NCBI GenBank assembly: GCA_023231475.1
Contig: JALJEE010000027.1
Coordinates: forward strand, 1-64,000
DNA: 64,000 bases
Source of the DNA: Seison nebaliae
Taxonomy: Eukaryota
Direction of reading: 5' to 3'
Shown here: positions 27,316 to 46,976 of the stretch, piece by piece
How the letters are laid out: each line of letters begins with the position of its first letter
Numbering within the stretch: position 1 is the stretch's first letter
Translations under genes and position numbers: made by a program
The notes under the pieces: model-generated
Told to the model about the DNA's origin: nothing
Databases searched by the model: none
What the model saw: the letters and a program-made list of their open reading frames with translations, nothing else

Positions 27316-29685
27316 TCAAACATAAACTTTAATTTTATAATATTGTGTTATTAAATTATTTATGGTATGGAGTAAAGAAGAAATAGTAGGACGTCTATTA
27401 GGACACGAACGCCACGTCGTTTCAATGATGTTCTTATATTCATTTTCCGCATTGATATACCACCATTTAGCTCTAATTGACGACTGGAATTGGTGATTGG
27501 AATGAAAGAAATGAAGTTCATTAATTTCTTCGTTTAACGTCATTAATAAATGATTTTGAGATGAGATACATTTACCCATTTCGAAATGAGATAAACTACG
27601 ATAATTCACTTTTTTCTTATTGAAAAAATTACTGATTAATTTTCTTGTGGGTAAAACTGAATTGCGTCGAATATCTGTGGGATCTGGTACGTCGAATTGC
27701 TGATTGACATTGAATGAATTATTAACGAAAATATTGTTATCACGATAATGTTGTTGACGTTGTGCTGCTGTCAAAGATAAATTATTTTCAAAAATTTTAT
27801 TTTTTATAATTTTCGATTCTTCCGATGGTTTCTCCTCATCAATCGTCTTATTCTGAGGATTAGTAAGAGTTTCATGGAAATGGAAATCTTCAATCTCATC
27901 AGCATTATATAGAGTTACACTGGAATATTGATAATTTTTTCTAGTGGTGAAAGATGGTGGCCAATTTGGTGGGAAAGCCGGCCGATATTCTTCCGCGACA
28001 ACCTTAAAAACCGTTACATGTGGATTCTCACCGATGAATGGTAAATCTCGTGTTAACATATGCCAAAATGTCATTCCACACGAATAGATGTCAGCAGCTG
28101 GTGTTGGAGGTTTTCCCCTTAATAGTTCGGGTGCTCGATATAAATAAGTTCCGGTAGTAGCTGAAGTTGATCGATTAGGAACGATAGGAAGAACAACGCC
28201 TTTATTTCTTAAGTTTTCTATGACAACCGAACAACCGAAATCAGCCAATTTACATCGACCCATTCCTGGAATAAGATTGGATGTAACGATAATATTTGAT
28301 GGTTTTATATCTAAATGAAGAATTCTCATTTGTTCGTTTGAATGGAGGAAATTTAATCCGTTCAAAATATCAACTGTCCATCTCAGACGTGTAATACAAT
28401 CAATCGTTGGCATTAGAATGAAATCGTTCAATAATGTCAAAAGAGAATGTTCGCCCGCTAATTCACAAATCATAATGTAACTTCTCGATAAATCGAATTG
28501 ATCTAATAACGACCAGAATTTCGGTGTTTTACATTCATTTTTCCATAAATATGATTCCGGTGTGGAGAATCTTCCGTTATAAGATAAAGACGATCGATAT
28601 TGTGATGAGTTGAATGATGATCGATTATCATTCGTTAAATCGGACATAAAATCACTAATATAATTACTATCTCTTTTCGTACTGATCGAGGAATCGCATA
28701 ACGGCGAATTTACCGTATCTGGTGAATTGAGACGACTCGTATTTGATATGATTGTTGTTGTTGATGATTTTGGTCGTCGAGAACGATTAGTTGTCGTACT
28801 CATTGGATTCCGATAAGATACTGGAGATAAATGATTAATTAGGGGATGGATAAGATGCATCGTTCGAACGACATTCTGATGTAATAATCCTACGACATGT
28901 TGTTCATTTAAGATACTTTGTTGCAATGCATTCCTACTCAATTTCATGGTGGAATGTAATTGTTTAATTGCAATTCGAACTTTCAATTTCTTCTTCCTAA
29001 ACAATCGATAACCATTTTCCAACTGATTCGTATTGAATAAAGATTTACTTCGTCGTCTTTTATAATTTGTTTGGAAATTGTTCGATTGGAAATGTTTCCG
29101 ATTCATCTCATATTCTGACATCAGATAACATTCTAATAAGAATTTCAATTCTTTCATTAAACATTCCTCGTAATTTCGAAGATAATAACTGGAGAAGAGA
29201 ACAGATAAATCGATAATCCAAGCCGCTTCATAAACATTTCCAAATGCGCCTTGACCGATTTTGCGATAAATTTGAATTGTCGTATCGAACGGAAATAATG
29301 ATAACATTTCATTCTCACAACGATTTTTCAAATTGAGAATTAATTGAAATATTCTTCCCGTTCGACTACAATTCCCATCAATAATTACATAATTATTCAT
29401 TGATGAATTATTCCAAAATATATCTATCGCTTCATATTTCCCCGAATGATCATTCTCTTCGATTAACGAATAATTATTCTCCTCGTCATTGGCACTAGTG
29501 GGAGACATGGCATTCGAATTGATATTCGCCTCAGCTAAACAGATTATACTGGCGTTGGACTCTTGTTGTACTCGGGAGAGATTGCCATTAATATTCTTCT
29601 TCTTACGCAATTCATTCAAAAGTGATTTCAATTTCAACACAGTTACACTCAATCTGCTACTTTCGCTTCCGATGTTGGACTCCAT
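27316..29685 (-). CDS. MOS: Mos serine/threonine kinase (intronless, large insertions)
   Basis: IGQGAFGNVY, LLHQNVVR, ILHLDIKPSNI, LADFGCS and GTYLYRAPELLRGKPPTPAADIYS...VVAEEYRP match c-Mos. First ATG is at 29685. Confidence 0.88.
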   Translation of the reverse strand: MESNIGSESSRLSVTVLKLKSLLNELRKKKNINGNLSRVQQESNASIICLAEANINSNAMSPTSANDEENNYSLIEENDHSGKYEAIDIFWNNSSMNNYVIIDGNCSRTGRIFQLILNLKNRCENEMLSLFPFDTTIQIYRKIGQGAFGNVYEAAWIIDLSVLFSSYYLRNYEECLMKELKFLLECYLMSEYEMNRKHFQSNNFQTNYKRRRSKSLFNTNQLENGYRLFRKKKLKVRIAIKQLHSTMKLSRNALQQSILNEQHVVGLLHQNVVRTMHLIHPLINHLSPVSYRNPMSTTTNRSRRPKSSTTTIISNTSRLNSPDTVNSPLCDSSISTKRDSNYISDFMSDLTNDNRSSFNSSQYRSSLSYNGRFSTPESYLWKNECKTPKFWSLLDQFDLSRSYIMICELAGEHSLLTLLNDFILMPTIDCITRLRWTVDILNGLNFLHSNEQMRILHLDIKPSNIIVTSNLIPGMGRCKLADFGCSVVIENLRNKGVVLPIVPNRSTSATTGTYLYRAPELLRGKPPTPAADIYSCGMTFWHMLTRDLPFIGENPHVTVFKVVAEEYRPAFPPNWPPSFTTRKNYQYSSVTLYNADEIEDFHFHETLTNPQNKTIDEEKPSEESKIIKNKIFENNLSLTAAQRQQHYRDNNIFVNNSFNVNQQFDVPDPTDIRRNSVLPTRKLISNFFNKKKVNYRSLSHFEMGKCISSQNHLLMTLNEEINELHFFHSNHQFQSSIRAKWWYINAENEYKNIIETTWRSCPNRRPTISSLLHTINNLITQYYKIKVYV

Positions 29686-30092
29686 AACCTCTACACCAAA
29701 ACCTGTCACCGCAAATTACTTTTTTCTCAACTCGTCTTCGGCGACAACTTGAATTAATATTTCGAATTATTCAAACCAGCCAAATTGAAAAAAATATGCT
29801 GAATTTTTTGCTTTGGTCTATTATGAAAATTTTGAATACTCTCTACTCTCAGGAATGTGAAGTAAGAGAATGTTGTATGAGTATGAAACAGTTTTCTCAA
29901 ACTTTATGTCGAGTCATTCAGTCTGCAGATAATAATGATGATGACCGATTATTCTTTTAAGAAGCTTCCTCTGACGCTCGATTTCATGAAATAATTTCAT
30001 TATTCTATAGAAACAAAATGGACATCATAATACAGAACAGAAAAAAATTTCATGAATCTAAAAAAAAATATTTTCCAACAGATGTTACACTG

Positions 30093-34147: not shown

Positions 34148-35887
34148 TTATATTGATTTCTTTCTAATAAAATGATTTCGTAATATTCTCTCATGCATCT
34201 CCCATACTTGAACTATATTATCTTTCGCCATCGAAATATTTAGGAAAGACATCGGTAACTTCTCTTTTTTCATCTTCAACAAAACTTTACAATTATCAAC
34301 TTTTCTCTTCATTTCCTTATATTTATCAGAATCTAATTCCAATAATTTTATATGAGATTTCTTCGTCCAAAAATCGTACATTTTTTCCATTGCTACATCA
34401 ATTGAATATCGCCAATCAACACTCGTCACCGGTCCCGTATTTCCACCATGAGCGAAAATGAGATTTGGAATATCTTTCGTTTGGAATGATTTTTTCACGA
34501 TTAATTCTCTCGTTGACAATTTCACATCTTCGATACTCTTCTGATATTGTTCATAACTATTATCGTCAGCTATTGATGATTTGACGGATGTTTTGAAATA
34601 ATTTTTCATTTTTTCATCAATTTTATTCTCACAATTATTTATATCCCAGACATAAGTTCGACGATTGGATGATGATTGTGAAAGAATATTGTAGAGTGTT
34701 GGATGCCAATTTAATTGTAATGTTTTCATATCTTCCATTTCATCATCATCCGTCGATGTTGATGGTAATTTAACGAAAGTTTCATTAAGTTTTCTCATAT
34801 CATAAATTCGAGAGGATGAACCACCAACAGCGAATAAATGACCAATAACTGGATTGAATTCAATTCGTTGATATTCCTCATTTGTGTGATTGATATGAAT
34901 AATATTCTTTTTTAAACGAATATCATTTATTTGAATATCATTCCTCTCTGTCAGACATGAGAGAAGATATGGATGTGATTTATTCCATGAAATATCTACA
35001 GGTCGATGACGTAAATTCATCGATTGATTTACCGATTTCCTTTCAATATCTAAAAGAGTTAATCCGTTCGTTTCCTCATCACAAATGGAAGCGAAACGAT
35101 TATAAAGAAACGGATTCCATTCCACATTGATAATTTCACCATTAAATCCTTTGAATATATGAATCTTTTCCAATTCTTTTATATCGTTTTCCATCTGATG
35201 ATTTTTTTCTTCTCGACATAATTTCAAAATTTTCCAATTTTCATTCTTTTCTTTCTCCTCCAATTCTCGTTCTTCCTTCTCTTTATATTCTCCGTAGCCC
35301 AATAAATCGTTTACTCGAAAAATTCCGAGACGACCTTCTTTCGTTCCCGTCACGACGGTTATAGATTTATCGAATAAATGATTCATATCAACATTCGATT
35401 GGAAAATGGAACATTTCGCACATGACAACGATCCATCGTCATGATAATATCTGGCAACTATTCTTATTCGATTTTTCAACGATCGATATTCACCAAATCC
35501 ATTTCCATTACTTGGAATATATTTGAGATATTCTTCGTTGTATGCCGATTCTTTTTTTTCCAAATTATCCACATTCTCATTAAACAAAGTATATGAATCG
35601 GGAATTAATGTTGATCCAATCATCAATAATGATGGTTCGTCAATCGGTTGAGTTCCCATCATAAACAATTGTAATTCATTCCTCCCATTATTCACTTCAT
35701 CATCATTTGAGATACTGTGACATAATTCGCATAAATCTTGAGTTAAATACATGGGGAGGAATTGGACGAATGGTGACGACCACTCAAGAGCAGAAGTGTA
35801 AAATAAATCATAAAGGAAAGACGTATTCTTTTTCCATTTGCGAAACTCCTCTGCAATTCTCTTCGTTTCTATTTTCTCGCTATTCAT
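34148..35887 (-). CDS. RBBP4/RBBP7 (CAF-1 p55)-like WD40 histone chaperone, divergent, intronless
   Basis: EEFRKWKKNTSFLYDL..ALEWSS, LIFAHGGNTGPV and DNIVQVWEM. Confidence 0.88.
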   Translation of the reverse strand: MNSEKIETKRIAEEFRKWKKNTSFLYDLFYTSALEWSSPFVQFLPMYLTQDLCELCHSISNDDEVNNGRNELQLFMMGTQPIDEPSLLMIGSTLIPDSYTLFNENVDNLEKKESAYNEEYLKYIPSNGNGFGEYRSLKNRIRIVARYYHDDGSLSCAKCSIFQSNVDMNHLFDKSITVVTGTKEGRLGIFRVNDLLGYGEYKEKEERELEEKEKNENWKILKLCREEKNHQMENDIKELEKIHIFKGFNGEIINVEWNPFLYNRFASICDEETNGLTLLDIERKSVNQSMNLRHRPVDISWNKSHPYLLSCLTERNDIQINDIRLKKNIIHINHTNEEYQRIEFNPVIGHLFAVGGSSSRIYDMRKLNETFVKLPSTSTDDDEMEDMKTLQLNWHPTLYNILSQSSSNRRTYVWDINNCENKIDEKMKNYFKTSVKSSIADDNSYEQYQKSIEDVKLSTRELIVKKSFQTKDIPNLIFAHGGNTGPVTSVDWRYSIDVAMEKMYDFWTKKSHIKLLELDSDKYKEMKRKVDNCKVLLKMKKEKLPMSFLNISMAKDNIVQVWEMHERILRNHFIRKKSI

Positions 35888-36181
35888 TTCTCTTAAATAA
35901 AAATTAAATTTAAAATGATTATCAAATTTACTTATAATCCAGATGTTTCTTCCTCTTATTTATTCTCCGAATGAGAAAAAGATATTTTAAAATTTAAAAT
36001 AACTTTTATTTTCCTTTTCAGCTTATTTTTCCTAAATTTTATTCTTCCATTCTCTTTCTTTCTCCATTTCTTTGTACATTTATCTTATTAATAAAAATGA
36101 CCAATATTTCAAAAATCTTCTCAACACCATTCTCGATTTATTTACTCTCTTTTAATTTTCTTTTCAACAATTTTTTTAAAA

Positions 36182-36550
36182 ATGGATAACATTTCAAAGA
36201 AAGAAAATGACAATCCGATTAACAAAAAATCATCAAATCTGATTAATGATATTGGTTTTGATAAGATGCCAAGAAATAAAACTTTACGACAACAATTACC
36301 AGCGTCGACTTGTGAACAATGTTTCCATTTTTGGGCGACATATAATTTGACAGATGCTCAACTACTTGAGAAATTGCGAGTTGGAGGATGTCGTCATCGA
36401 TCGAACAATTTAAAATGGCAGGAAGTTCCTTCTTATTTATTCCTCTCAGAAAATTTTGATTTATCAGACAATTCCCAGAAAGTGACTGGTTCACCTGATC
36501 GAATACATAAAAATAAAATGAAAAGAAAAAATAAATATTTGAATGAATAA
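36182..36550 (+). CDS. CtIP/Sae2/Com1 C-terminal-domain protein (122 aa)
   Basis: RNKTLRQQLPASTCEQC...GCRHR matches the CtIP R-K-R--L----CxxC...CSRHR signature. Confidence 0.7.
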   Translation: MDNISKKENDNPINKKSSNLINDIGFDKMPRNKTLRQQLPASTCEQCFHFWATYNLTDAQLLEKLRVGGCRHRSNNLKWQEVPSYLFLSENFDLSDNSQKVTGSPDRIHKNKMKRKNKYLNE

Positions 36551-36709: not shown

Positions 36710-38104
36710 TTACGTCGTTTGACATTTGAACGTTTTAATGATTTTTATACAATCGTCTTTGCAAATTGTCCGACAACAATAAACGAATCGGCAATTACAT
36801 TTAATTTTAATTTTATTGATTTTTTCCAAAATAAATTCTTCTGATTTATCAATCCTTTTTTGTCCGTTCACATTTTTCGAACAATTAACAAATCGATTCT
36901 CTATTATTGGTTTCTCTTCGATATTTCGCTTTCTTTGATTTCTTTGTTGGATGAATCGTTGACGACGAAATTTCCTTCTCTGTCGTCTTCTTTGTCGATT
37001 AGTATTGATGGTGGAGCGTTTATTATAAATGATATCCATCGGACCTGCCAACTTCTCCAATGCATTTGTCACCCGACCATAAAATCGTTGTGGGTCATAA
37101 GACAAAGTGTTAATTGGTAAAGACCTCGAATTGTGACGTTTCCCATTATGATTTCTTCTCAATCGATTTTGTTGTTGACTTTGAATTTCATTTCGGATCA
37201 TTGATAATATTTGTTTTGGTTCGATAGAAATTGCATTAATTGTACGATCATTTAATGATTGTACAACATAAAAAAAAGGTCGAATTCGGTTGCCGATTTT
37301 TACCATTTTATTCAAATAAATATGATTTCGACGATTTCTTTTTTTTCCAGTTTGACGAAATATTTCCGTATTTGGTTTTACATCTTTCACTCCCAATGAC
37401 AATTTCGCTATTTGAATACCGACATTGATGTTATGATTACGAACTGCTCGTTTTACAGGTTTTAACTTCCGTCGTTGTTCGGTCGTTCGATTGAAGATGT
37501 TATTATCATGAAGGAATTTTTTCGTTATTATCGAAGAGAATGTAAAGAGTTTTGATAGAGTACATCGATTCTCTTTGATACGTGATCGAAATCGTGAAAA
37601 ATTATTATTATTCGAACAATATTTTCGACATAAATGAAATTCACCCGTTGAACATTTTTTCATAATATTATAAAGTAAACTGGCACTACTCAATGCATGG
37701 AAGTAAGCGGCTTGATTGGGGAAACTTATCACTAAAAGAAAATTAGATTATAATTAATTTAATATTTATAATTCAAATGGAACTTGATTTGAAATTGGTG
37801 GGACAATTGAGTATTGAATTTGGCGATTGATGTCTGTTCATTATTCCACATTCTGCCATAGTTAAATTTTTACCTGAACAAATGAAGACAAAATATTATT
37901 ATTATTAGTTAACTTTTTAATTAGAATAAAAATTTAACTTTCTTGAACTGCGTCCAATAGACCACGAATGTTCTTTATCATCGTCAATTGATGGGGAGAT
38001 TCCATTGGGAACTTCTCATCAAACAACCACGAATCTTCGATGAATCCATTCGATTGTGTAATGGGAAGAAGGATAAGTAGAAGTACAAATAGTCGTCGAC
38101 TCAT
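36710..38104 (-). CDS. Highly divergent Wnt ligand, 3 exons (introns 37874-37938, 37732-37783)
   Basis: Signal peptide; AEC...LNC; QAAYFHALSSA...KKCSTGE; RNHNINVG; C-terminal CNCRFVYCCRTICKDDC...FKC. Confidence 0.85.
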
Positions 38105-40941
38105 TGCTCACATCTAATAGTTGTAAACGAAAAACTTTCCTTATATTATTATTGAATTAGAATGGGAGTAGGAGAATATTCGGTAGAAAATGTATATATT
38201 GAAATGGCAAATAAAAGGTAATTTAAAGAAAATGAAACACTTTTCTTGTTATCATACAAGATTTACGAGGTAGTAATCGGTAAACAATCGATCAAGGATC
38301 AGTAACCGCAGCTGTTACAGAAGAATAGTCTCACCCGACTTCAAACGTTCGGACACGAAATCGATGTGTGGAAATTGAAAAGAAGAATATCAACAACATA
38401 AAATTTATAGTAAATCCGCTCACTGATGAATTGCTACTGTTACCCTATAAATATAAATGAGGAAAAATGACAATTTTATTTGATTTAGACAATGAAGAGT
38501 AAGTGATGAAATTAATTTGTTATTACACCTTAATGACAAATCAATTAAGCGAAACAGTGTAATCGATTTATTATTGGAAATAATATCCAAACAAATCGCG
38601 CAGTAACAGTTCCTTTCCCACAGGGTCTTCGGGTGTCATTTGAATTTTACCTCAAAAAAAAAAACTTCGATGAGCTAAATAATTTCGTTAATAGATCGAT
38701 AAAAAAATGAAACTAATTCATTTTCCTCTCAAAAAAAAAATGTACATCTTCAAAAACTTAACAAGTGATCGATGATTTTCATTTATGGATTTTGTTCTTT
38801 TCTATTGAAGTTTATGCAGAAAAAAAGATTCGGTTTAATGACTAATGGTAACTGTGTTATAAGGAATGGAAATTGATATGGTTGAAAGTGAAAGGTGTAA
38901 CCTTAGACGTTATATGTAGGAAGTAAAAAGAAACAAGTGAGATGAAAATCAGTTCAATCAACATCCACTTATCAGAAAGTTTGCACATAGTTAAGAATCG
39001 TAATGAAGAGGAGTTTTCCCTTGCTATTCGTACACAAATAAGTTTTCGACGAAATATTCTCAGACATCAGATTCGTTAAGAAATGACGATGAACGTTTCT
39101 GTTGTCGACGCGTTAATTTGAATTTTATGCAAATAAAGGAAATGCGACGTGTCGAATTGATGGAATTCTTATGACGGTTTTCTTTTTGGTCTTTGTATTC
39201 CGCCTTTCTTCTTATCGGATTTTCGTCTTAGAACGGAACGACAAGATGAATTAATAAAAAGAAATCCTCATCCATCTTCGGGACTTATAGCACGTATCCA
39301 TGAATAATAATGAAGTGGAATGAATGGCAGTAAAAACTGTCAGTTAAACACAAACTGTAAACTTAGTTGAAGATGAAAGTTGAACAAGGTGAAAGAACGT
39401 TTTTTACTTCGATAAATTATCGTTAAATGGAAAAAGAAATACTTCCTATATGAAATGTGCATAAAATTGAGCATGATTGTTCATTAGCTGTTCATAGAAA
39501 CAATGGTTATTTCCGAGTAATTGGAATTTGGTTAGAGAAAACATTATTACTCACAATAATTCATTTTCGAAAAATAGATATTCATTGAATTGCTAACGGC
39601 TCTTTTAGTTCCCGAAGAATTGGGGGCGAAGTTAAGGAAGTGTTTCATTTTAGTTTTATGTAAAAGAACATGGACTGAAGATGATAAAAAGGAAAATAAT
39701 CGATAATAATAAAATTGATAATTCTGCTGTTTACCCTGGAACATTTGGTGACAAATTTGAAATTTTGACAATTCCGTTAATTGTTCGATCGGAGAATTGA
39801 ACTTCACGAATAGGAAAATGTAACACAAACACCAAAAAAAAAGAATGAATAAGAATTTATTCACGAACTTGTAAAAATCATCATCGAATGATTAAATCAG
39901 TAAAATGTGTGACGCGTGAAAAGCGTCAATAATCTTAAGTTTTATTTCGCGCATCTATCCACTCATCATCATGAAATAGGGTGATTGTTATCTAGTTCGT
40001 TGAATGATCGAACGAATTATTTGCCCAATGACTTCGTTTCCCAATGAAACGATTATTCAAATTTAAATGTGAGTGCATTCTTCCAGAAACTGAATTGGAG
40101 TAGAAAGAAGGTAAATAATATCGAGTCAACACCAAATTGGAGGGGTAGTGGCATTCCTAGACGAATATCAGAAACATTCATGAATAATTAGAAAATGAAT
40201 AGAACTAATTATAATTTCCGCTCAAATTTCTCCTTTGTATCGTCAATAAATATTTCTTTTAATTAGCAGTTACTTCCCATATACTTTCATTCATCATATC
40301 TAATTAGCGTTGCGGGAAAAGTTGTTAAACTAAATTGTTTGTCTAGTCTCGACATTGTCGTCCATATCTAACAAGGAAACTATCATAACCATTAAAACGG
40401 TAATTATCAAATATCGTTTATTGACAATTACATTCTAATTTCTCACATTCAATTGATATTTCCCCTTCCAATAAAATAAATCCGTAACGACTATCGATTT
40501 CATTTCATCTAATCCTCACAAACTCTCTCAAAAAAGAAGAAATTTTTCAATATTTTCTTTCAAAAACTTCATAAGCCTTAAAAAACCTTTTTTATGTCTT
40601 TCAAAGAGATTTCTCCAAATTTTTTCTCAGACTCAAAAATTATTCTCAAACTTTCTCTTCAAACAATTCCCCTTAAATAAGTTTATATTCCTTTAATGCA
40701 ATTAAGATTCTTTCTATAATTATTCAAACTAATTTTCATGACTCTTATTTTAGTGAGTAAATATTTTTCAAATGAATAAATTCTATTCATGCATCTGAAT
40801 TTCAATCGAACTTAATTGAATGAGTTGTAGTTGGATAAACAAAATAAAATTTTATTAAAAATCCAGAAAAGGAGGAGCTGATTCTCCAATGGTAATAAAT
40901 ATGGTAATAAATAAAGTGAAAAATGATGTAGAAATGGGATA

Positions 40942-44754: not shown

Positions 44755-45810
44755 ATGGTTGATAAGAAAAAAGTTATTATTCATTCAATTTTCCATGAAA
44801 CTAAAATTTGAAACATTTAAACTTTAGAAAAAGGGTAAAGTAAAAGGAAAGACGAAAGGCAAAGGTAAAGATAAGGGAAAAGGGGGAAAGAAAAAGAGGA
44901 AAGTATCATCCATAAAAACTTCTGATAAGAATGAGACTGAAAGTGCTGCTCCCAGTAATTTATCTCTTATGCCAAGCATCAGTAAAATAAGTAGAGGAAG
45001 TAAAGATGACTTAACCGAAAGTTGGATAATTTTTAATTCTCTTAAAATATTCTTTGTCCATACTTTCCTCAGATCGTTCGGTCTCCGCCCTGAAACTTTA
45101 TCAGCCAAAGACTAAACATAAAAAACACAAAAAAACAGTGAAAATTCCGGAAGAGGAAAAAGACTTAACGAGATTACTTACCACTCGTCCCAATTTTAAA
45201 GATTATTCAATTAAAGTTATTTCAATTCTTTCTTTCAAATTTCTTAAATTTAAATGAACTGTTGACAAGGAATTGAAAAATCCGAAATATCCAATCATTT
45301 CTCATCATGGTGCAGCTGTTGATAAGAATAACAAACCATTAGTACTACATAATAAAAAGAATTTGGAAGTGAATGACAAATATGCGGAATATGATGAAGG
45401 TGATGCCACTTTCGTTCCACCCGCTACTTTGGCTATCGTCAAATTACGAGAAATGGGCAAGAGTGATTTCGAAAATATTGATTTTTCCAATCCTCTCCCC
45501 CAAGGCATAAGCCGAGGCTGGGATTCAACTCGTCCTCAATCTAATTTCAAAAATTTTACGAAATATTATAAAGAACCGTTACAAGGACAATTACCGTTAG
45601 AAGAATACTTCCCCGATTGGACACATGATTATCGTATCATTGATAAAACTAACATGAACAAAGCAAACATTTATAAATTAGTGTTAGTTGAAGTTTTTTT
45701 TAATAGAAATTCTCTTAATTTATTTACGGAACGTATTTAGACATATTGTGGGTAAAATGCCTCCAAGATTATTTGACTACACAATAAATAAATTTAAGGA
45801 AGGAAAATAA
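44755..45810 (+). CDS. Unknown basic protein, paralogue A (Lys/Gly-rich N-terminus); introns 44773-44827, 45021-45072, 45216-45269, 45683-45740
   Basis: Frame is continuous after splicing; co-linear similarity and shared intron positions with paralogue B. Confidence 0.65.
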
Positions 45811-46086: not shown

Positions 46087-46976
46087 ATGAAGACTACTAT
46101 GTGGAATAAATCAGCACGATCACCTTTTAGCAGTTTTAGTTGTATGACTTATTTTTATGTGTTCTTTTGTTAGTTCTTTTAATTAATTCCATGATAATAG
46201 CATTGAAAAGCGTATCTCGTATGAGTCTGTTGGTGGGTCGAAAGAAGAGAGTTCTTCATAGCAAACTTGTAGAAAAACAGTTGACACGATTAACTTTAAA
46301 GAAAGCACCAATCAAAGATTACACGAAGAAAGTGAATTAAATAATTTTAGTTAATGATAATTCGTATTTCAGGAATTAGAATATCCGATTAAATGTAAAT
46401 ATGATATTCATGCATTGAAAGTTGATCGAAGTGGGAAACTGTTGTTATTGAACTCACCGAAAGACGTGAAAGTATTGGACAATTATCAAGTTTATGATGA
46501 AAGTGATCCGAATTTTATGCCACCTCCCGAATTAGCAGTCGTCAAATTACAACAAACACAACGTAATGATTTTGAAGATATAAAATTTCAGCCTAAAATC
46601 GAACTACCCCCCAATTATCGACGGACAAAACCTTCGAATGTCACCAAAGACAGCTCGTTCACTAAATTTTACACTCGACCAATTGAAAGACAAATACCGT
46701 TTGATGAAACATTTAACTATCTTCCTGAACATTATATGAGAACTCGGAAAATGAAAGCGAATGCAACTCAAGCTGAAGTCTTGGCGATATTGTTAAATTG
46801 TGTTGAATTTGTGTTAAAATTTAAATTTCTAAATTTTCAGTGAACAATTCCCAAAAATGCCGAATCGATTAATTCAACAAACGGCACAACGATTGAAAGT
46901 ATATCAACAGGAAAAGAAGTTAGAACAAGAGAAAAAGGAAAAGAAAATTATGCTGCCTTATTTGGGGAAATATTGA
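46087..46976 (+). CDS. Unknown protein, paralogue B; introns 46133-46173, 46332-46372, 46792-46840
   Basis: YDESDPNFMPPPELAVVKL vs A's YDEGDATFVPPATLAIVKL; FTKFY vs FTKYY; KMPNRL vs KMPPRL. The start codon is uncertain. Confidence 0.62.

Follow-up and report, generated by a model that had tools for sequence, protein, structure and literature searches.

Seison nebaliae is a tiny epibiont of crustaceans that is related to the rotifers and to the parasitic thorny-headed worms (acanthocephalans). The window, which is the whole 64-kb stretch of genomic DNA that was analysed, is AT-rich, gene-dense animal DNA and contains, on the minus strand at positions 38104-36710, a predicted Wnt gene of three exons encoding 425 residues (Table 1). 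The splicing is predicted and matches the public gene model: the joined three-exon product is identical to SNEBB_001817 of Seison nebaliae, a "hypothetical protein" of 425 aa. Also on the minus strand, a gene of several very short exons (approximately 38250-38700) seems to stop about 150 nt short of the Wnt start, on its upstream side, and a small frame at 36101-36550 (plus strand) lies tail-to-tail with the Wnt gene and shows a weak match to the SAE2/CtIP C-terminus (E = 0.046), which falls short of the cutoff. The window also encodes an RBBP4/CAF1-C-like WD40 protein that carries long insertions and occupies one frame of 603 codons (34148-35959, minus strand), a 799-codon single-frame kinase with long insertions (27316-29715, minus strand), which looks Mos-like by eye, and two similar tandem 160-codon frames without a Pfam match (45258-45740 and 46361-46843, plus strand). 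An exon of a TGF-beta family ligand (PF00019; 13214-13693, plus strand) represents a second divergent signalling ligand in the window, against which motif erosion in this genome could be gauged.

Table 1. Features of the predicted Seison Wnt gene and its product, in window coordinates
Feature	Position	Strand	Remarks
Exon 1	37939..38104	-	predicted; ATG at 38104; signal-peptide-like N-terminus (aa 1-~19) and N-terminal subdomain, Cys pair lost
Intron 1	37874..37938	-	65 nt, GT..AG, GC 0.15; predicted, agrees with public model
Exon 2	37784..37873	-	90 nt, predicted; EC...NC cysteine pair C64, C79
Intron 2	37732..37783	-	52 nt, GT..AG, GC 0.13; predicted
Exon 3	36710..37731	-	predicted; aa 86-425 and stop (36712-36710), single unbroken frame
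C112-C142 region	37562..37654	-	four Cys kept (112, 120, 124, 142); hairpin-1 WxWGG lost
Thumb / hairpin-2 site	37316..37396	-	aa 198-224; 0/4 Cys, no His-Gly, no Ser; basic; low-confidence loop in model
Expanded N-C linker	37034..37237	-	aa 251-318; one R-X-R-R site at 275
Arg-rich tract	36917..37012	-	aa 326-357, 14 K+R/32; three conserved Cys positions replaced; R-X-R-R at 331, 335; predicted helix
C-terminal eight-Cys module	36722..36883	-	C369-C422 with index finger; predicted beta-hairpin 386-422

The 1278-nt reading frame of the gene is free of stops and frameshifts. In all four DNA runs, which represent at most two samples and one of which is possibly the window's own source, the whole gene is covered by one contig per run with no differences and no gaps, and an assembly error is unlikely because the contigs of all four runs match the gene exactly. 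The open frame through the stretches of exon 3 in which conserved Wnt sequence has been replaced is not a product of chance. None of 5000 DNA shuffles of codons 198-357 was stop-free, the GC content of the replaced stretches is 0.29-0.36 versus 0.13-0.15 in both introns, and the in-frame codon score is positive in all seven segments, corresponding to exon-like codon use. Retained introns in the thumb, the linker, or the Arg tract are ruled out by this GC content and codon use.

The Pfam profile wnt (PF00110) matches the Seison protein at aa 36-197 with 40 bits (cutoff, 20.3 bits; E = 4.5e-10), whereas a canonical control scored 389 bits. As references, at least 117 loci with a Wnt motif were collected from metagenome contigs, 122 stop-free segments were built into a profile, and 61 references were aligned with the Seison protein; because the loci were selected by the thumb motif, this set shows the canonical state and not its frequency. 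Among these loci, L002:2371-3453 (+) is a canonical Wnt7-like gene that is intact, has no introns, carries the complete thumb motif, and lies on a 211-kb fish-virus contig (Lymphocystis disease virus 4). Another, L015:283-756 (+), is an animal Wnt last exon in a bacterial bin (Dysgonomonas MAG) and is most likely host contamination, and a third, L058:31-1113 (+), is a Wnt with a tandemly repeated NLHNN helix region, possibly an assembly artefact.

The profile of 122 segments matches the Seison protein at aa 36-196 (37.1 bits) and 390-423, with nothing between, and its colinearity with canonical Wnts extends from the N-terminal subdomain as far as the last Cys. Wnt columns that at least 85% of the references conserve number 65, of which 27 are kept and 38 are changed, including hairpin 1 and two residues of the finger tip. 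All matches among solved structures are Wnts, the best being Wnt8a (E = 1.9e-4) by a small margin, and the Atlas matches of the protein are Wnt8-type clusters at 0.87-0.88, which is a lead only. The protein scores 12-25 bits against the references and possesses an N-terminal subdomain that is absent from vertebrate Wnt8. Searches of protein databases returned only the Seison protein itself, and nothing among shorter proteins; these blanks say nothing about its uniqueness because a profile with a canonical Wnt7-like member also found no other Wnt among 4571 candidates. A search of the four DNA runs with a canonical Wnt gene at 80% likeness returned no contigs and is too insensitive to show that canonical paralogues are absent. 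Judged from its sequence, the Seison protein is a descendant of Wnt that lacks three of the features by which canonical lipidated Wnts are defined.

In the thumb, the hairpin-2 signature C[KR]CHGxSGxC with its acyl-serine is absent, and a Thr occupies the Ser column. After RNHNINVG (183-190), the next Cys occurs only at 369, and there is no Ser between 198 and 243; the sequence-only reading, which had described a Wnt without its lipidation hairpin and with a Cys-free region at this place, is borne out, since none of the four thumb Cys remains. The thumb loop has been replaced in place and not deleted, as the alignment is gap-free and sets Thr213-Gly214 on the canonical Ser-Gly. All 42 thumb references keep C-x-C-H-G and two later Cys, whereas the Seison protein keeps none of them. 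Thr at the acylation site is also found in four of the 42 references (L023, L056, L067, and L088), always inside the full cysteine frame.

The losses extend beyond those noticed in the sequence-only reading, as the WxWGG of hairpin 1 and the Cys pair near the N-terminus are missing too. Hairpin 1 retains its Cys, but of its WxWGGC motif only the Cys (C142) remains. In total, 14 of 24 conserved Cys columns are kept, while canonical Wnts have 22-24, and the lost Cys comprise the N-terminal pair, the four of the thumb, and a further four located between linker and finger. When the disulfide map of XWnt8 is applied, the 14 Cys make up seven complete pairs, provided that C369 is bonded to C422. The probability that only whole pairs remain under naive random Cys loss on this map is 4e-4, a value that is too small because the paired losses cluster in segments. 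The cysteines of the Seison Wnt were thus apparently lost in disulfide pairs. Two bonds of the Wnt disulfide map, the vicinal one and the N-terminal one, are supported by 10.1101/2022.10.21.513178 and PMC4068752.

A missed exon supplying CKCHG-S, which the sequence-only reading had named among the observations that would overturn its interpretation, was found neither in the six frames, nor among the splice options, nor with a thumb profile, and the contigs carry no indel. The patterns C-x-C-H-G, C-H-G-x-S, G-x-S-G-S-C, C-C-G-x-G, and W-x-W-G-G-C have no match in the six frames of the 64 kb. A single further intron can be placed in exon 3 in 886 ways, none of which yields the thumb motif; 43 of them bring at least two Cys within 80 residues of NHN, all by removing 402-600 nt and thereby pulling the finger forward. 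When the thumb profile of 42 references was run against 3194 six-frame segments, the best match had an E value of 0.48 and lay outside the Wnt gene. A frameshifted thumb in the alternative frame at approximately 37393-37340 is ruled out by contigs without an indel and by the failure of that frame to score as a thumb. Of the matches to the thumb pattern, one of 15 in genome contigs is a Wnt exon, and likewise one of the two viral matches.

Between the two domains, the expanded linker corresponds to the region that binds the co-receptor in canonical Wnts, as described in 10.1101/2022.10.21.513178. The Arg-rich tract that follows aligns to the PxYC..GRxC..DGC stretch, ahead of CCGRG. In place of CCGRG the protein reads NCSKN, an eroded form in which a single Cys survives, C369, which falls on the first Cys of the CC in some alignments and on the second in others. 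Of the earlier statement that an Arg-rich tract replaces the CCGRG region, the Arg-rich replacement therefore holds and its place does not. Arg makes up 10.8% of the Seison Wnt versus 5.2% in the window ORFs, which is twice the average, and the net charge is +56 versus +14 to +33 in seven full-length reference Wnts. Because of this charge, retention at the cell surface or in the matrix would be expected rather than diffusion, and the suggestion that the protein is possibly diffusible is doubtful.

R-X-[KR]-R sites are present at 217, 275, 331, and 335. Those at 331 and 335 are the furin-like sites that had been noticed in the Arg tract; at least one such site also occurs in six of the seven full-length references, and one of 29 references has a site at the same position, between PxxC and CC. 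Since all eight C-terminal Cys lie beyond the last R-X-R-R site, the module released by cleavage there would be closed. Cleavage of the Arg tract by a furin-type protease is conceivable though rather unlikely, and the best explanation does not need it.

The index finger is kept, with C397, C399, F401, C404, C405, C409, C413, and C422. At its tip, W is changed to Y403 (Tyr in one of 39 references) and V to T407 (found in none of the 39). At the other end of the protein, the start is signal-peptide-like by hydropathy only, being basic with the most hydrophobic 9-mer (3.8) at aa 5-13. The signal peptide, as a prediction, and the C-terminal Cys finger, with seven Cys and F401, thus remain, as had been read from the DNA. 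The fold predicted from the single sequence reached a pLDDT of 40, and that predicted with a 62-row alignment reached a pLDDT of 71.9 and a pTM of 0.61. The latter model consists of a helical domain, a thumb site that lacks structure (203-222, below 50), a helix over the Arg tract (pLDDT 83-91), and a finger hairpin (pLDDT 85-91), and it leans towards canonical Wnts because it was built on an alignment of them. In Foldseek, the top nine rows were Wnts, two of them at E < 0.001, and VIA-align gave Z scores of 13.3-17.7 for eight Wnt chains, with the next non-Wnt at 6.2; the aligned ranges stop at residue 324, and the finger is therefore not placed as in solved Wnts. The Seison protein is predicted to combine the Wnt N-terminal fold with a finger hairpin.

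A diverged contig of 385 nt and low depth, present in one run, is collinear with the upstream region and exon 1 only (window 38027-38299). It is approximately 95% alike upstream and approximately 70-85% alike in exon 1, where the frame is kept. In codons 27-36, compared by hand, 9 of 30 bases differ, six of them at third positions, and three codons are synonymous and three changed; the binomial P for this third-position excess is approximately 0.04, based on 30 readable bases. The contig may come from a second strain, another species, or a paralogue, and Seison nebaliae has been reported with two strains (PMC8351084).

Based on these features, a mode of action is proposed with moderate confidence, in which the Seison Wnt is a lipid-free, Wntless-independent, surface-bound ligand that uses the finger alone. 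In canonical Wnts, Porcupine takes hairpin 2 into a luminal cavity, and Wntless buries the thumb together with the lipid (PMC10112924). Because the hairpin taken up by Porcupine is gone, the Seison Wnt is most likely not acylated, and it is probably exported by ordinary bulk secretion without Porcupine or Wntless, by analogy with WntD. Heparan-sulfate-type retention through the basic tracts would probably stand in for the lipid. Frizzled-type receptors are probably engaged weakly, by the retained C-terminal finger only, to give a short-range signal. A role as a strong agonist is countered by experiments on Wnt3a, in which W333A nearly abolishes Frizzled binding and S209A abolishes both binding and activity (PMC4068752). 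The loss of the thumb may have gone together with the loss or deep divergence of Wntless in the lineage of Seison and the acanthocephalans. The earlier idea of an independently derived lipid-free Wnt is supported by the lack of a missed exon or frameshift in the searches described above, the predicted fold and finger, the apparently paired Cys losses, and a Wntless that is scored as missing.

In the supplement of PMC12256650, the Wntless BUSCO is complete in all 11 monogononts, and 10 of 11 bdelloids have it in complete, duplicated, or fragmented form; it is present in 21 of the 22 rotifers other than the pararotatorians and missing in all three pararotatorians, namely Seison and both acanthocephalans. 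This absence may reflect divergence because 29% of BUSCOs (280 of 954) share the same joint absence in Seison and the acanthocephalans (PMC12256650), and the authors of the Seison genome concede that derived genes may have been missed (PMC8351084). The supplement of PMC7310846 lists a Frizzled-2 cluster for the acanthocephalan P. laevis. Among the BUSCO rows listed in the supplement of PMC12256650, there is no row for Porcupine, catenin, dishevelled, or axin, and no Wnt, Porcupine, or Wntless rows appear in the supplementary material available for PMC8351084, PMC12690905, and PMC9523657; the available text of PMC9153150 has prose mentions only. The main text of PMC12256650 contains no occurrence of Wnt, and the link between the Seison Wnt gene and the Wntless BUSCO row is not made there. 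In the largely open-access papers and the main texts of preprints covered, no publication was found that deals with Wnt ligands of Seison or the acanthocephalans, or with a lineage that lacks Wntless.

A different fate of the same protein can be envisaged, in which a furin-type protease would release a natural mini-Wnt (aa 358-425), the N-terminal domain having the role of a pro-domain. The freed module would occupy Frizzled site 2 and act as a weak ligand or a competitive antagonist. All eight C-terminal Cys lie beyond the last R-X-R-R (335), a site at this position is found in only one of 29 references, and, on the XWnt8 disulfide map, the sole bond that would span the Arg tract is among those lost, each of which agrees with such a release. 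Isolated Wnt C-terminal domains, moreover, bind Frizzled and moderately inhibit Wnt3a (PMC4068752). We nevertheless consider this processed form, taken as a whole, unlikely, because R-X-[KR]-R also occurs in six of seven full-length canonical references, the Arg tract is modelled as a helix (pLDDT 83-91), cuts at the extra sites 217 and 275 would break the protein up, and an antagonist presupposes canonical Wnts to oppose.

Somewhat less probable again is relaxed selection in a fast-evolving, gene-losing lineage, under which the decayed motifs and the basic tracts would be products of drift and the protein would have little or no signalling role. A frame of 1278 nt without a stop or frameshift, with exon-like codon use in seven of seven segments, is not what decay would leave, and neither is an even, apparently paired Cys set together with a complete finger set. 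The third-position excess in the diverged copy likewise argues against decay, as does the Arg content, twice the window average (10.8% vs 5.2%), which AT bias alone does not give. It is very unlikely that the protein is still acylated, at Thr213 by a divergent Porcupine, or that the gene model hides a true thumb through an unseen exon, editing, or a frameshift: although Thr213-Gly214 lies gap-free on Ser-Gly, Thr occurs at this site in four of 42 references, and the alternative frame at 37393-37340 has one C-K dipeptide, the C-x-C-H-G and two later Cys that are present in 42 of 42 references are all missing, hairpin 2 is the very part that Porcupine takes up in its luminal cavity (PMC10112924), the contigs show no indel, and none of the splice options and frames is recognised as a thumb.

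The lipid-free, surface-bound ligand proposed here has its closest counterpart in Drosophila WntD. WntD carries no lipid and does not depend on Porcupine or Wntless (PMC2427328), and a 2023 review presents it as the one analysed Wnt without lipid (PMC10112924), in agreement with its having been named as the known non-acylated precedent. Both proteins are Wnt homologues without the acyl-accepting serine (the Ser209 position of Wnt3a), and the N-terminal domain of the Seison model aligns with the WntD structure (PDB 4KRR) over 179 residues (Z = 14.6, rmsd 6.0). In WntD, however, the site sits within conserved cysteines (PMC2427328, Fig. 2D legend), whereas the Seison protein lacks all four thumb Cys. 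It also lacks hairpin 1 and six more cysteines and is more remodelled than WntD. Furthermore, flies have Porcupine, Wntless, and lipidated Wnts alongside WntD, whereas Wntless is scored as missing in Seison, and the two belong to different phyla.

With canonical Wnts (PF00110; 4F0A, 7KC4, 8TZR, and 8TZO), the Seison protein shares the helical domain (Z = 16-17.7) and the Cys and Phe of the finger. It differs from them in having 14 and not 22-24 Cys, no C[KR]CHGxSGxC, no WxWGG, a longer linker, an Arg tract, and a charge of +56. Norrin signals without lipid via Frizzled site 2 and has basic glycosaminoglycan binding (PMC4497409); it is a works-like comparison only, being an unrelated cystine-knot protein, whereas the Seison protein descends from Wnt. 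Mini-Wnt and the isolated Wnt C-terminal domain (PMC4068752; PMC4497409) are finger-only modules that bind Frizzled without lipid, like the putative cut product of the Seison protein. In contrast to that product, they are man-made, and the Wnt3a domains are inactive alone and mildly inhibitory (PMC4068752). The Seison module, for its part, lacks three Cys that such fragments carry.

As a possibility rather than an expectation, we suggest that Seison and the acanthocephalans may have lost the complete machinery for Wnt lipidation and export (Wntless and probably Porcupine) and may use lipid-free, basic, finger-only ligands. They would then be the first animal lineage with a wholly non-acylated Wnt system, of which the Seison gene, possibly encoding a furin-released natural mini-Wnt, would be the visible trace. 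It is debated whether the lipid is needed only for Wntless export or for receptor activation as well, and a natural Wnt without the acylation hairpin but with the finger provides a ready-made test of finger-only signalling. If Wntless and Porcupine are truly gone in Seison and the acanthocephalans, an animal lineage would pattern its body without Wnt lipidation, and structural work would gain a soluble, detergent-free natural Wnt scaffold.
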